From: a virus
Lineage: Duplodnaviria > Heunggongvirae > Uroviricota > Caudoviricetes
DNA length: 64,000 nucleotides
IMG/VR virus record: IMGVR_UViG_2839610755_000024
Strand: one strand, 5' to 3'
A program made the position numbers. Position 1 is the stretch's first letter; each line of letters starts with the position of its first letter. This document shows positions 54,001-60,000 of this stretch, piece after piece.

Positions 54001-57000
54001 GCCCTGACATACGCTCTGAAACCGTCCACGTTTGGCGTTTTCAGTTGCGGGATAATTTTCTTCAGGCGGCGTTTTCGTTTCTCGTTGACCGCAACAGCGT
54101 GTGGAAGTCTGTCACCGACTTCGGTGTTGTAGGCGTTCAGGAAGGATTCGTAGTCGATTCGTTCTGCCTTGCGACGTTCAGGTTTAACCTGCCCATCGCC
54201 ATCCCCGTTAGGGGGTAAGGGGGTATTTGTATTTATTGTCTTTTGTATATTGTCTTTTGTGTTTAGCTGACTTGGCTTATACCCATTAGCCGACTTGGCT
54301 AATGTTTTATTAGCTGTTTTAGCTAATGTTAAGCTGTCCTGGCTAATCCACTGAGAAACCACCTTGTTCACTCCGATTTTCACGCCATCAGCAATGAGGA
54401 ATTTACGCTCAATAAGCTGGCGCTTGGCAGCGCAAACATGAGTGTGATGAATACCTGTCATGGCTGCTATCTGCGTGTTTGTGAGTCGATCCATCGGCTT
54501 ATTGAATCCGTATGTCTTGCGCATGATAGCGAGCATCACCTTCAACTGCCGGACGGTTAAATCAGCCATCAGCAGACTGTCGGTAATCTCGTTAGCAACG
54601 CGCATGAAACCATCTTCGGTATCTGCCACGCGATGCTCCACGACCTCCAGTTGAGGCCTGTAATCAGCTAACTTAACGACGCCCATGTTTCACTCCTGCT
54701 TTGGCTAGTCTGTAAACACCAACAAGGCGCTCTGCGAACGCCCTGTTATTTGCTGCGGCTACCACTAATCCCTCAGGTGAATCAGGGTGTCGAATCTCTT
54801 CTTTTTCCTGGTATTTCTTACGACGTTTTGTCATAATTACTCCTGTGGATTGATCCAGTAATTCCCTCAGAATTGCATATCAATTTGCTTAAAATCCTCG
54901 GTGGCAGCCGGGGATTTTTTCTTTGTGATTTCATCAAGCGCATACTTAAAAGCCCTGCTAATCGGACTGATGTCTGATGCCATTCCGAAAGCACACAAGA
55001 CCGAAGCAATAAACCGCCAGTCCGTTCTGCTTATCTTCGATTCATGACAGCCAATCATCTTTGCCAGACCGCGCTGTGTAAGCGTTGACAGGTTGATGAG
55101 TAAATCTGTTTCTGCGCGATCAACGTCGCGCTGTGATAGTTTGCTGTAACTTGTTCGTTCCATTTCTTAAGATTTCCAATAGTGAATAGTTAGTTGAAAG
55201 GTATGCGTGGAAACGCATATGGCCTTAGTTGGTCAGATATCTTGGGACTCGCTTTTCAGCGACGTAGGACGAATGTCCGTTGTTACAAAGAGCGGCTCCG
55301 CTTATTAAGCGGCTTTGTGCTCCGGCGGGAACACGTCATCAAGACTTACTTTTGCGCCTAACTTGTTTAGACACGCAACAAGAGCACGGCATGTTTTAAG
55401 GTCTGGGAAGCGACGACCAGATTCCCAATGTCCGATAGCTCCCTGTGTGCATCCAACTGCCTTAGCAAGTGTTGTTTGAGAGATATTCAGTGACTCTCGA
55501 TATTTTCGTAGGTTGCTCATATGCCCTCCATAGTAACCACGAATAAAAAATACAATATGTACTTCTCAAATACAAGTAAAAATACACATTGTGCATGGAT
55601 GGTTCCAGTACAGAGCGTAATAATAAGGACATGAAAATGAAATGGTATGAACTGGCTAGATCCAGAATGAAAGAGCTCGGCATAACTCAAGAGAAGTTAG
55701 CCGAAGAGCTAGGTATGACGCAGGGTGGAATTGGACACTGGTTGCGCGGATCTCGTCATCCATCTCTTAGTGATATTGGTGTGGTGTTTAAATACCTTGG
55801 TATTGATAACATATCATTCAACCACGACGGGACATTTTCACCTGTTGGCGAATACTCATCGGCCCCAGTTAAAAAACAATATGAGTACCCTGTTTTTTCT
55901 CATGTTCAGGCTGGGATGTTCTCTCCAGAACTCAGAACCTTTACCAAAGGTGATGCGGAGAGATTGGTAAGCACAACCAAAAAAGCCAGTGACTCTGCAT
56001 TCTGGCTTGAGGTTGAAGGTAACTCAATGACCGCACCAACAGGTTCCAAACCTAGTTTTCCTGACGGGATGTTAATTCTGGTTGACCCTGAGCAAGCTGT
56101 TGAGCCCGGCGATTTCTGCATAGCCAGACTTGGTGGTGATGAATTTACCTTCAAGAAACTGATCAGGGATAGCGGTCAGGTGTTTCTACAACCACTAAAC
56201 CCGCAATATCCAATGATCCCATGCAATGAGAGTTGTTCCGTTGTGGGGAAAGTTATCGCCAGCCAATGGCCTGAAGAGACGTTTGGGTAAAGAGGATAGA
56301 TGGAGTTTAATGGCCATGAGTATCAAGCGGTCAAAAAGAAGTTCATCTATTCATTGAAAGCATAAGGCCATCTGAGTATATCCGTAATGATCTGGATATT
56401 GTCTATAACATCAATGACCGGACGATAGATATCGGTGAGCAGCGTCCTGTATGGCAGGGTGAGGCAGGTGAAAAAACGTCCTGCCATCAACAAGAATCAA
56501 GTGCATCCGCTCTCTGGACAGATGGAAAATTTATTGGATGCAAAAAGATATGAAATAACACCTGTATAGCACGGAGCTTTCTCTGACCGATGCACTTGAA
56601 GTTGTTAGGGCTGACCCAGCCTGCTGTTTCTTTAGGTAAGAGAAAAGAGATTTAGGAGATGAAAGGTCGCAGAGGTGCGGCCTTTTTTATTGAGAGTGGA
56701 TCTTGAACGGAAATTCTCAAGACTTGAGTCTTGCATGCAAATCAATTCCTGGATAAACTCGATCTGAGTCAATAACTTAGAGAGAGAGCAAATGGCAAAG
56801 TCAAACGTTAGCGTGCAGGCATTCAAGGACTTCCTTGAAGAGCTTATGTCGCTGAACATAATGAAGGAGGCCACCGCTCGAAATTTAAAAAACTCATCCG
56901 CTCGCCTCTTAACGGTAGTCCAAGAAGAGGAAATGGGTGATGTTACTCAGCTTGATGTGAATGAGCTTGCCGAGCGATACATCAACGCAACTGAGCCGAA

Positions 57001-60000
57001 GCCTAGCGACAGCAGCATTACTGCATATAAAAGCCGCATGGAAAGTGCAATCAAAAAGTTTGTAGCTTTCCAGTCTGGTGAAGAAATCCCATACACTCCG
57101 ATTGACAAAGAATCCAGTGAGGAAAAAGATTTGACTGGCGAACCAACAAAAGTCGAAGGCAAGGCTAATGCACTTCATACCTATGATCTTCCAGTAGTTC
57201 TTCGACCTGAATCAGGGGTTACAGTAACGATTAAAGGCATTCCTAACGATATCACAAACGAAGAAGCCGAACGCATCTCTTCAATTCTGAAGGTTTACGT
57301 TCGGCCTCAATAATGCAAAAGCATTCAGCACAATGTCCAACTCCCCAGTCCGACATTGATGCTGTTTAACCAGAGCCTCCAAAAGGAGCCCTTGTTAAGG
57401 TACACAATATTTGCGATGTAACCTTAGCGCGTCTGGTACATTTTTTCAAGCGGTTGTAGGGCTGCCGCCAATATGAGAAAACACAGATGTCTACATACAA
57501 TTTGAATGACCAATTCGATCGAGAAGTTCATGTGAATGCCTATGAACGGATAAGGCATGGAAATCTTGAACATGTGTGTGAGCATTATCGCTCAAGGCCA
57601 CACCGCTAATCATCAACCCGGCCTCCATGCCGGGTTTTCTTTTCCTCTCGCCCAAAAAAACACATAACCAATTGTATTTATTGGAAAATAAATAGATACA
57701 ACTCACTAAACAACGCAATTCTGATCTCTCCTTACATCGCCGAGGCAATACACCCACGCTAAAAAACAATACTATTAAATACAAAGCGTTGTAAAAAAAC
57801 GCCCCGTTTTAGAACAAATTGTATTGACCAAGTGAAGTACATATCGTACTATTTAACCATCAGCAGGACGCTGGAAGCCAAATGGAACAGACTGGCAGGC
57901 TCTTTAAACAACGTCGACTCTCGACTACGTGGCTGAAAAGCCAGATCACCCAACCACATAAGCTGTGGGATGCAATGCCGAAGCAACCGTCTCAGGAGGA
58001 GCTTCGAGATTGCATCGCCAAAGTTTATTCGGGAGGAATCTATGTCCAGAAAAACAGAATTTAAAGGCACCGCAGCTTCTCGCCGTAGAGCTCGTCGCGC
58101 AAACCTGCAAAGTCAGGAGGCGATTAGCTCCGACAAACTACACAGGCCAACCCCATCACGAGTGGTCTTACAATGCAAACGCAAACCAGCAATGAGAGCA
58201 GAAGTAATAACACTGACAACGTTGACCAGAAAATATGAAGGCTCAACTTGTCTTCCAAATGTAGCTCTTTACGCGGCAGGCTACCGTAAATCCAAACAAC
58301 TGACAGCAAGATGACTTGTGTTGGTCGCCAGAAAATGAAATTAGGCAGCAAACCACTTATTTGAGGTGATATATGGAATTTCATGAAAGTGCGATTTGTG
58401 ATTTTCGCGCTAACGCAAATTCAGTAAAACCACAGCCAATTGCAGTTCTTTTTAAAACAATGGGTGCGTGGGCTGTTTGAACCGCCCCGGAAATCCTGGA
58501 GACTAAACTCCCTGAGAAAGAGGTAAACAGGATGACTAAAAATACTCGTTTTTCCCCCGAAGTCCGTCAGCGGGCGATTCGTATGGTTCTGGAAAGTCAG
58601 GATGAATATGACTCACAGTGGGCGGCAATTTGTTCCATTGCCCCAAAGATTGGCTGTACGCCGGAGACTCTGCGTGTCTGGGTTCGCCAGCATGAGCGGG
58701 ATACCGGGGGCGGTGATGGTGGGCTCACCAGCGCTGAACGTCAGCGTCTGAAAGAGCTGGAACGTGAAAATCGTGAACTGCGCCGCAGTAACGATATCCT
58801 TCGCCAGGCTTCCGCTTATTTTGCGAAGGCGGAGTTCGACCGCCTCTGGAAAAAATGATGCCACTGCTGGATAAGCTGCGTGAGCAGTACGGGGTCGGAC
58901 CGGTATGCAGCGAACTGCATATTGCCCCGTCAACGTATTACCATTGTCAGCAACAGCGACATCATCCGGATAAACGCAGTGCCCGTGCGCAGCACGACGA
59001 CTGGCTGAAGAGAGAGATACAGCGCGTATACGATGAAAATCATCAGGTGTACGGTGTGCGTAAAGTCTGGCGTCAGTTGTTACGGGAAGGAATCAGGGTG
59101 GCCAGATGTACAGTGGCACGTCTCATGGCGGTTATGGGACTTGCCGGTGTTCTCCGGGGTAAAAAGGTCCGTACGACCATCAGCCGGAAAGCCGTTGCCG
59201 CAGGCGACCGCGTAAACCGTCAGTTCGTGGCAGAACGACCTGACCAGCTGTGGGTGGCTGATTTTACTTACGTCAGCACATGGCAGGGCTTCGTCTATGT
59301 GGCGTTTATCATTGATGTGTTTGCCGGATACATCGTGGGGTGGCGGGTCTCATCGTCTATGGAAACGACATTCGTGCTGGATGCGCTGGAGCAGGCGTTG
59401 TGGGCCCGTCGTCCGTCTGGCACCATCCATCACAGCGATAAAGGCTCTCAGTATGTGTCACTGGCCTATACGGAGCGACTAAAAGAAGCCGGATTACTGG
59501 CATCAACAGGGAGTACAGGCGACTCGTATGACAACGCGATGGCTGAGAGCATCAATGGTCTTTACAAAGCGGAGGTAATACACCGTAAGAGCTGGAAAAA
59601 CCGTGCAGAAGTGGAACTGGCCACACTAACGTGGGTGGACTGGTATAACAATCGACGATTGCTGGGAAGGCTGGGCCATACTCCTCCGGCAGAAGCAGAA
59701 AAAGCTTATTATGCTTCCATCGGAAACGATGATCTGGCAGCCTGAGTTCACAGATAAAACACTCTCCAGGAAACCCGGGGCGGTTCAGTTTTATGCTTCG
59801 CCGCTGACGACACTGACGCAAGAATGGCAATAGGACAAGAGATGGAGATGGACCCGACAAACGATGAATTCATAATTTATGGCGCTCCATCTAATTACTT
59901 ACTTGATACCTGCAACATTTACAACAAGGCTGCCTGATGGTGGCCTTTATTTTTGGCATAAACAACAGAATAAACACAGCACTGTGTATTCATTCCAACG

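Follow-up and report, generated by a model that had tools for sequence, protein, structure and literature searches.

A mobile two-gene cassette with a structured leader in the cI–t_imm interval of a Shiga toxin phage immunity region

What fills the interval between the repressor gene and the early leftward promoter of a lambdoid immunity region, the place where lambda carries rexA and rexB, is the question raised by positions 56291-57860 of a 64,000-nucleotide stretch of caudoviral DNA (IMG/VR record IMGVR_UViG_2839610755_000024), here called the window. An earlier note on this DNA had placed an orphan two-gene module there, between cI and pL/N, and every element that it listed is present, where it was placed or one base away. 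The immunity region is of the VT2-Sakai/Sp5 type: 56291-57860 is 100% identical to VT2-Sakai (Sp5) and also to the Shiga toxin (Stx) phages Nil2, Stx1-converting phage, Stx2 II, 1717, 2851 and the PA series, and at least 80% of it is found in 220 of 5,426 complete E. coli genomes. The Stx2 prophage of O157:H7 Sakai has this immunity type. The two genes, H0093 (173 aa) and H0092 (40 aa), were annotated by the VT2-Sakai authors as hypothetical open reading frames (ORFs); H0093 is ECs1184, or ORF23 of Sp5. We find that the unit 56661-57645, which contains both, is a self-contained, horizontally mobile cassette.

The larger gene (56792-57313, plus strand) encodes an acidic protein with an isoelectric point (pI) of 4.85, as had been proposed. 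Its close relatives number 44 and share 41-99% identity; they come from Escherichia, Cronobacter, Salmonella, Yersinia, Serratia, Proteus, Providencia and Morganella, and so many Enterobacterales homologues make it a real gene rather than a chance ORF. The smaller one, previously only a possible ORF, is likewise a gene (57487-57609, plus strand; previously about 57488-57610). Its His/Cys-rich product carries the motif VxVxxYxRxRxGxLExVxxHxRSxP, matches phrog_21154 at 5e-8, and has homologues in phage SH2026Stx1, in Ralstonia phages and in Pseudescherichia. Between the window and Salmonella phage Oslo the nonsynonymous differences in H0092 (pN 0.021) lie far below the synonymous ones (pS 0.284; pN/pS about 0.07), which indicates a protein-coding gene under purifying selection.

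The two genes belong together. In 42 of the 42 phage and prophage loci with a homologue of the 173-aa gene, a small ORF lies 150-216 nt downstream of it, and in the loci examined a terminator then follows. The pairing is obligate and the pair moves together, so the two-gene module of the earlier note is borne out. The small ORFs fall into three types: type a (57 aa, phrog_33859; 29 loci), type b (47 aa, with a CxxC...CxC arrangement; 7 loci) and type c (H0092-like, 40-44 aa; 6 loci). By inspection all three share the core V-x-[FV]-R-x-[YF]-x(4-5)-G-K. Types a and b are basic (pI 9-10.3) and H0092 has a pI of 7.0; among type a ORFs pS is 0.64-0.92, near saturation, and pN 0.03-0.27, so that these ORFs too code for proteins under purifying selection. 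Two further loci with the pair, found by starting from H0092, lie between cI and the early region in one case and, in a Pseudescherichia prophage, between the Q-type antiterminator and the lysis genes in the other. With 73-77% identity among themselves, the large proteins of the window, of locus L036 and of Proteus are paired with types c, b and a, respectively, and the small genes are therefore freely exchanged.

The edges of the moving unit are given by comparison with phage Oslo, which has exactly 56664-57616 in common with the window, at 86% identity, behind a cI that is only 69% identical. As the shared segment runs from terminator to terminator, the moving unit consists of the first terminator, a candidate promoter, the large gene, the spacer and the small gene. 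Both terminators were present in the earlier description and are well supported. The first (56661-56692, plus strand) comprises a hairpin at 56661-56686 and a T run (-15.9 kcal/mol, z = -3.75; previously 56664-56690); it is kept in Oslo and SH2026Stx1, and the DNA homology to Oslo begins at 56664. The second (57615-57645, plus strand; previously 57616-57645) comprises a hairpin at 57615-57636 and a T run (-14.3 kcal/mol, z = -5.28); it was detected by the terminator scan, and AP000422 annotates the same site as the terminator of the pRM transcript. The candidate sigma-70 promoter at 56731-56759 (plus strand; TTGCAT, 17 nt, TAAACT) was read directly from the sequence. Oslo, L036, L046 and Proteus all have both hexamers at the same distance (TTGCAA, 17 nt, TAGAAT in the last), and a consensus promoter scan of the window gave no match at this position.

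The second terminator is t_imm-like and forms the right edge of a cargo slot. Over 57615-57730 the identity to lambda is 87.5%, the lambda counterpart (35708-35826) being the stretch at t_imm that follows rexB, and the DNA from 57615 onwards is homologous also to many other lambdoid prophages. The proposed rex position thus holds, since the cassette lies between cI and a junction that lambda rexB also abuts. Other prophages carry other cargo in the same place. The cI (WP_001302016.1) and cro (WP_000067727.1) proteins of E. coli SF-173 are identical to those of the window, and the genes that come next encode a hypothetical protein of 185 aa and a DUF1828 protein (L075 1697-3003); E. coli LS45, with the same cI/cro alleles, has a different two-gene cargo of 144-aa and 206-aa hypothetical proteins (L077 1952-3003). 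In a DEC4E prophage remnant an NYN-domain gene occupies the slot behind the same or a related cI (L076 2234-3109). Conversely, the large and small genes are found together in other slots and backbones, namely the Q-lysis slot in Pseudescherichia and a position beside P22-like Arc/Ant genes.

The approximately 370 bp directly 3' of cI (56291-56660), in which only short ORFs had been seen and a decayed gene suspected, do hold such a gene. In a tblastn search the intact 113-aa DUF3024 protein of phage SH2026Stx1 aligns at 56300-56633 in frames +1, +3 and +2, and the two long segments of the three show 81-85% amino-acid identity. The pseudogene (56300-56639, plus strand) has two frameshifts and one in-frame stop, in place of a W codon of the SH2026Stx1 gene; no intact DUF3024/PDC-S43 reading frame exists at 56300-56639, the homology being spread over three frames. 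A Proteus orthologue matches the gap more weakly, in agreement with this assignment; it belongs to Pfam DUF3024 and matches the PADLOC candidate defence gene PDC-S43 at 4.4e-37. SH2026Stx1 has an intact trio of the DUF3024 gene (directly after cI), a 177-aa homologue and a 44-aa homologue, from which it follows that the slot of the window formerly held the three-gene arrangement. The interval between cI and t_imm is thus a variable slot in which, here, two cargo units are stacked, a dead DUF3024/PDC-S43 gene and then the 56661-57645 cassette. This adds a documented case, dead defence candidate included, to the view of the interval as a swap site for two-gene cargo.

What kind of protein is ECs1184? 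The earlier note spoke of an orphan lacking homology and recognised no domain in it, but the protein has both a large family and a recognisable fold. A profile search recovered at least 652 clusters at 50% identity (E <= 0.001); almost all of the clusters listed are of about 160-200 aa and match over the full length. No Pfam family covers the protein, and weak matches to Phage_int_SAM_1 appear in 8 of 57 family members. An AlphaFold2 model from a 57-sequence alignment (mean predicted local distance difference test score, pLDDT, of 88.9) shows a four-helix bundle resembling a core-binding domain at residues 8-94, an acidic low-confidence linker at residues ~100-129, and a conserved beta-hairpin plus helix at residues 130-169 with a pLDDT near 95. 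In an earlier model from 21 sequences this C-terminal module had a pLDDT of 50-58, which the deeper alignment remedied. On this prediction ECs1184 has the core-binding (SAM-like) four-helix domain of tyrosine recombinases. Residues Y79, R82, R138, P151 and E158 are invariant in the family; the bundle carries the motifs TARNLKNS and YKSR, and the C-terminal module the motif P-x-x-L-R-x-G...[IL]-P-x-D-L-T-x-x-E-A-E-R-I. This module has no match in the PDB or in BFVD (cut-off in BFVD, E <= 0.001). Its segment IPxDLTxEEAERI presumably resembles the LPKSLSEAEVEALL segment of XerD, or the first helix of recombinase catalytic domains, which we take as a lead only. Sequence-profile matches in the PDB to histone H2B, synaptobrevin and malate dehydrogenase are at chance level and were set aside. 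ECs1184 contains no recombinase catalytic domain: it ends at residue 173, members of the family have about 160-200 aa, and there is no PF00589 match. The protein is a catalytically dead descendant or relative of the tyrosine recombinases, in which only the nucleic-acid-binding core-binding domain has been kept and a C-terminal hairpin-helix added. A fold and a testable logic are thereby supplied for a large protein family that has had no annotation.

The spacer between the two genes (57314-57486, plus strand, 173 nt) is structured, with a minimum free energy of -54.1 kcal/mol (z = -3.91). It is 92% identical between the window and Oslo; the synonymous differences in the flanking genes are 0.28 and 0.41. 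Its downstream part (57366-57486) would correspond to a conserved leader with covariation that occupies about 120 nt upstream of the small ORF in loci L049-L069, L043 and L047. In 17 leaders of the type a class, 87.7% of the cells of four proposed helices are paired, as against about 40% with slid partners; 12 pairs have changed on both sides, and none of 500 shuffles matches this. The closing helix of this class is 99% paired, and its CCGC/GCGG becomes CCAC/GUGG in four sequences. The closing helix of the window class also covaries (CCAGA/UCUGG in the window and Oslo, CUGC/GCAG in L036, CUGUAA/UUACAG in L046). One leader helix adjoins the Shine-Dalgarno sequence and includes a Shine-Dalgarno-like and an anti-Shine-Dalgarno-like strand. 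A covariance model of the type a leaders (R1) recovers its own class only and does not detect the window leader, with filters off too, so that homology between the two classes rests on shared motifs and on covariation in four sequences only. RNAalifold on a mixed alignment mis-paired part of the window group, and those counts were not used for the window. No Rfam 15 family matches the window leader or the leader in ten related loci. The one hit in the window, a sub-threshold match to GadY that scored 20 bits where the gathering score is 45 (E 0.95), lies over the terminator, is driven by it and was rejected. By eye, no conserved promoter candidate for the small ORF is found inside the leader. 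The structured leader, with its covariation, is listed in no RNA database.

Directly after the stop codon of the 173-aa gene lies a long imperfect hairpin (57326-57364, plus strand; -16.6 kcal/mol, z = -5.77). Its inner 14 nt read CAACTCCCCAGTCC in the window, whereas Oslo and L046 have exactly the reverse complement of this, GGACTGGGGAGTTG, but the hairpin flanks group differently, the window with Oslo and L036 with L046. Since the grouping of the flanks conflicts with the orientation of the tip, the tip has been inverted more than once. The loci compared were the window (57326-57364), L038, L036 and L046. An antisense promoter-like site (57339-57310, minus strand; TGGACA, 18 nt, CATTAT) lies over the hairpin and is aimed into the 3' end of the 173-aa gene.

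Homologues of the 173-aa gene are not the only upstream partners of the small ORFs. Types a, b and c also stand behind pairs of an XRE regulator and an ImmA/IrrE metallopeptidase in E. coli phage Phi06_2987 S, Klebsiella phage ST846-OXA48phi9.2 and Ralstonia P2-like phages. In Ralstonia phage YO034_1 (L073 1883-2292) a type-a-like (MTTKDDDYDVIFRRFRRTKSGKLLDAQAFGLKAWPIKVPKRR) and a type-c-like small ORF are in tandem behind the XRE-ImmA pair, an arrangement that points to kinship between types a and c and to an ability to work jointly. A further leader class is common to cassettes with the core-binding-domain protein (SH2026Stx1, L048) and the Klebsiella XRE-ImmA cassette (L072 2283-2461, L048 3562-3736 and L080 1516-1698). 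Within it, GUGUAUGGAG...CCGCUACAC and AUAGYGGUUCUCC could form a pseudoknot or alternative pairings. Against PADLOC the XRE-ImmA pairs are most similar to CapH/CapP; the best E values, reached in two of the three phages, are 1.4e-10 and 5.8e-12, and the Klebsiella pair matches more weakly. CapH/CapP-type pairs turn on immune operons upon DNA damage, and related ImmR/ImmA pairs govern prophages as well as integrative and conjugative elements (bioRxiv 10.1101/2022.04.27.489752). These shared partners suggest that the 173-aa protein takes the same upstream role as the XRE-ImmA pairs. Three micro-protein families are thus interchangeable partners of two unrelated upstream modules. In 56291-57860 itself, ORF and library scans found no XRE or Zn-metallopeptidase gene, as a cassette of the CapH/CapP or RosmerTA type would have.

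At about 25% identity, the family of the 173-aa protein also has distant members in non-phage, chromosomal settings, beside genes for a DegP-like protease, recA-recX or a thiamine pyrophosphate enzyme. Downstream of each, after 0-60 nt, comes the gene for a conserved protein of about 190-200 aa whose N-terminal region appears hydrophobic and, by inspection, resembles two transmembrane segments. This partner carries the motif HDLIPVAAQLSA and has no significant Pfam match (L009 7577-8143, L011 7564-8154, L012 7587-8177, L013 7613-8203, L014 1792-2400). As the distant members always precede such a protein, the pairing of a binder with a candidate effector recurs. A search of a genome collection for related loci gave one locus only.

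Published data bear on the function of ECs1184 in two ways. Mondal et al. made in-frame deletions across Sp5 in K-12 in 2016 and could not obtain those of ORF23 (ECs1184) and ORF21 (ECs1180); no conserved domains were seen, and in their words the deletion "appears to be lethal" (PMC5155283). Such a result does not prove essentiality, as the ECs1180 homologue is naturally disrupted here: in the window it is cut by IS629 after 106 nt and resumes at 59797 (58373-59800, with orfA at 58532-58858 and orfB at 58855-59745). Identical cI/cro alleles occur with other cargo, and any lethality of ECs1184 loss therefore arises within the cassette. An undeletable ECs1184 fits the logic of toxin-antitoxin or addiction modules better than that of a dispensable rex-like exclusion gene. 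If its loss does kill the lysogen, this would bear on the stability and curability of Stx prophages. As to expression in the lysogen, the evidence is indirect: uninduced Sakai cultures yielded ECs1184 among the RNA-associated proteins in work of 2025, at a false discovery rate of 0.065, and in a polynucleotide kinase assay it was labelled no better than the green fluorescent protein control (PMC7618764). Ordinary cultures thus contain the protein, whose RNA binding is weak or narrow at most. In Phi24B, a related phage, the expression of genes downstream of cI is restricted to lysogens (PMC3342100).

How might such a cassette act? We tentatively favour, at somewhat less than an even chance, a self-contained cassette in which a regulator or neutraliser is joined to a small effector that inhibits growth, much as in toxin-antitoxin or abortive-infection modules. 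ECs1184 would keep the small protein silent or harmless, and the small protein would be an effector that inhibits growth and does harm if unrestrained. Control would run through the shared transcript and its leader, or through an operator of the cassette, rather than through partner-specific protein contact; this route is favoured because near-identical large proteins have exchanged their small genes and because at least one leader class travels with the small gene. In a lysogen the pair, if expressed there, may behave in toxin-antitoxin or abortive-infection fashion, and so stabilise the prophage, attack superinfecting phage or do both. The evidence that speaks for this picture is the obligate pairing, the coding capacity of both ORFs, the reported non-deletability with a lethality that, if real, is internal to the cassette, the occurrence of the same small-ORF types and of one leader class behind CapH/CapP-like pairs, the binder and candidate effector that recur in the distant chromosomal members, and a neighbouring gene that is a PADLOC defence candidate. 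Of this picture, the analysis shows the anatomy, the fold, the pairing, the mobility and the coding capacity; the direction of control, the toxicity of the small protein, expression in the lysogen and any action on phage are inferred.

Several observations weigh against it. The distant chromosomal members lie among housekeeping genes, outside defence islands. Pfam, NCBIfam and PADLOC searches with both window proteins gave nothing significant and no toxin, antitoxin or defence model. A technical cause may lie behind the failed deletion of ECs1184. The structured spacer of 150-216 nt is unlike classical type II toxin-antitoxin operons, and the XRE-ImmA pairs of the three phages may be the prophages' own repressors, with the small ORF as ordinary downstream cargo. 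Finally, close large proteins carrying all three small-ORF types argue against a specific protein-protein neutralisation, and direct antitoxin-toxin binding was down-weighted for this reason. The regulator-effector picture can also be put in a broader form, as an undescribed class of temperate-phage modules in which a core-binding-domain-only protein controls interchangeable effectors of 40-57 aa through a covarying leader of about 120-175 nt, the leader-effector unit is used also in CapH/CapP-like DNA-damage switches, and loss of the regulator kills the lysogen; in this full form we hold it to be doubtful.

One alternative, put forward in the earlier note, is a superinfection-exclusion or lysogenic-conversion cargo that is simply expressed in the lysogen, without a toxic component or an internal regulator-effector relation. 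Its setting would suit it well, as the slot is that of rexAB in lambda with the t_imm junction in common, PADLOC- or nuclease-like-annotated cargo occurs in or beside the same slot, and the architecture is moron-like, with its own terminators and a candidate promoter; the lysogen-restricted genes of Phi24B behind cI (PMC3342100) point the same way. We nevertheless consider it unlikely. Genes of the rexAB type are dispensable and ECs1184 is reported to be non-deletable, neither product resembles known exclusion or defence families in Pfam, PHROGs or PADLOC, the pair also occurs in a late region, where expression in the lysogen would not be expected, and an obligate pairing through a conserved structured leader is left unexplained. 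Mondal et al. suggested instead that ECs1184 is an accessory regulator of lysogeny maintenance. On this view it would be a DNA-binding protein that contributes to silencing the lytic genes, and the recombinase-like repressors MrpR and SroF would be its analogues. Prophages with identical cI and cro proteins but without the ECs1184 gene are hard to reconcile with that role, as are the same pair in unrelated backbones and slots (Q-lysis, P22-like Arc/Ant) and the chromosomal location of the distant family members; nor would a backbone-specific repressor travel as a cassette with a small ORF. The gene does adjoin cI, and its non-deletability was read as a need for stable lysogeny (PMC5155283), yet the proposal appears quite improbable to us.

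The fold invites one more explanation, namely a decoy consisting of the core-binding domain only, which would occupy core-type recombinase sites or DNA junctions and so hinder the integrases or Xer proteins of competitors, or modulate the phage's own Int. The domain is indeed the one by which recombinases contact their core sites. No recombinase site was identified, however, and a family that is ~25-80% divergent has kept invariant residues of its own (Y79, R82, R138, P151, E158) rather than recombinase motifs; the decoy also accounts for neither the small ORF nor the leader, and the chromosomal members pair with an apparently membrane-anchored protein. We regard it as very improbable. The regulator-effector cassette remains the reading that we prefer.

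The genes and sites around the cassette are as follows. On the left, the upstream edge of the slot is the cI repressor gene (55595-56290, plus strand), whose product matches Pfam Peptidase_S24 at 1.3e-28 and HTH_3 at 2e-10; it is annotated as cI in AP005153 and AP000422, and in RefSeq as the LexA family protein WP_001302016.1. The cro gene lies at 55305-55520 on the minus strand. On the right, outside the cassette, are the OL operators with pL (57777-57852, plus strand) and nutL (57898-57938, plus strand), both mapped from the VT2-Sakai annotation AP000422, and the N gene (58042-58314, plus strand; Pfam N_peptide, 3e-32). The promoter scan found TTGACC-17-TACTAT at 57824-57852, within OL/pL; the pL, nutL and N that the earlier note placed immediately downstream are confirmed. 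RefSeq also has a 60-aa ORF at 57882-58064 (WP_000438343.1 / ECs_5705), which runs across nutL into the beginning of N and has the look of either an artefact of annotation or an N-leader ORF.

How does the cassette compare with known systems? It is like lambda rexA-rexB in its slot, in lying on the cI strand, in having two genes, and in a right edge homologous to lambda 35708-35826; the apparently membrane-anchored partner of the distant relatives recalls the combination of a cytoplasmic RexA with a membrane RexB. It differs in that neither product matches RexA or RexB (Pfam, PHROGs, NCBIfam, PADLOC), in that neither window product has a hydrophobic or membrane segment in the translations inspected, and in having its own upstream terminator and candidate promoter, so that it is not simply part of a pRM co-transcript; rexAB is, moreover, dispensable and ECs1184 reportedly not deletable. 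PanA/Panacea exemplifies type II toxin-antitoxin modules with a promiscuous antitoxin. The cassette resembles type II modules in its adjacent, co-directional genes, in an upstream product with a nucleic-acid-binding domain and an acidic linker, in a small downstream gene that is basic in types a and b, in one upstream family with several partners, and in the reported non-deletability of the upstream gene. It departs from them in a structured gap of 173 nt (150-216 nt across loci) instead of an overlap or short gap, in matching no known toxin or antitoxin family, in the near-neutral pI of H0092, and in showing no sign of partner-specific coevolution.

In Salmonella phage BTP1 the BstA protein, encoded next to the repressor, couples a DNA-binding domain to an abortive-infection function. 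The stk gene of 933W and the P2/P3 genes of Phi24B are lysogen-expressed accessory genes directly 3' of cI in Stx phages (PMC3342100). The cassette has no homology to any of these, and the immunity type of the window differs from that of 933W. With CapH/CapP it shares the same small-ORF types, and also one leader class, found behind XRE-ImmA pairs; capH/capP are, however, usually divergent from their target operon (bioRxiv 10.1101/2022.04.27.489752), whereas the genes of the window are all co-directional. The weak Phage_int_SAM_1 matches of the ECs1184 family recall the tyrosine recombinases, but ECs1184 lacks their catalytic domain and the R-H-R-Y (R-K-H-R-H/W-Y) active-site residues. The recombinase-like phage repressors MrpR and SroF both keep the full-length recombinase fold, which ECs1184 does not, and the family-specific C-terminal beta-hairpin and helix sets ECs1184 apart from all of these proteins.

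A moron is an autonomous cargo unit of lambdoid phages in the definition of Hendrix and Juhala. The cassette behaves as one in being present or absent between conserved flanking genes and in occurring in other backbones. A moron is also flanked by terminators and a promoter of its own; here the two terminators are well supported, and the promoter is a conserved, consensus-like candidate missed by the scan. Its base composition is unlike that of a typical moron in not being distinct, with a G+C content of 0.445 in the cassette against 0.459 in cI and 0.422 in OL-pL-nutL. PHROGs searches with both window proteins returned only families of unknown function, and a literature search by protein accession gave nothing relevant. 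The components of the cassette thus match no described defence or toxin-antitoxin family, while its logic, a cargo slot filled by a binder and a small effector, is a familiar one.

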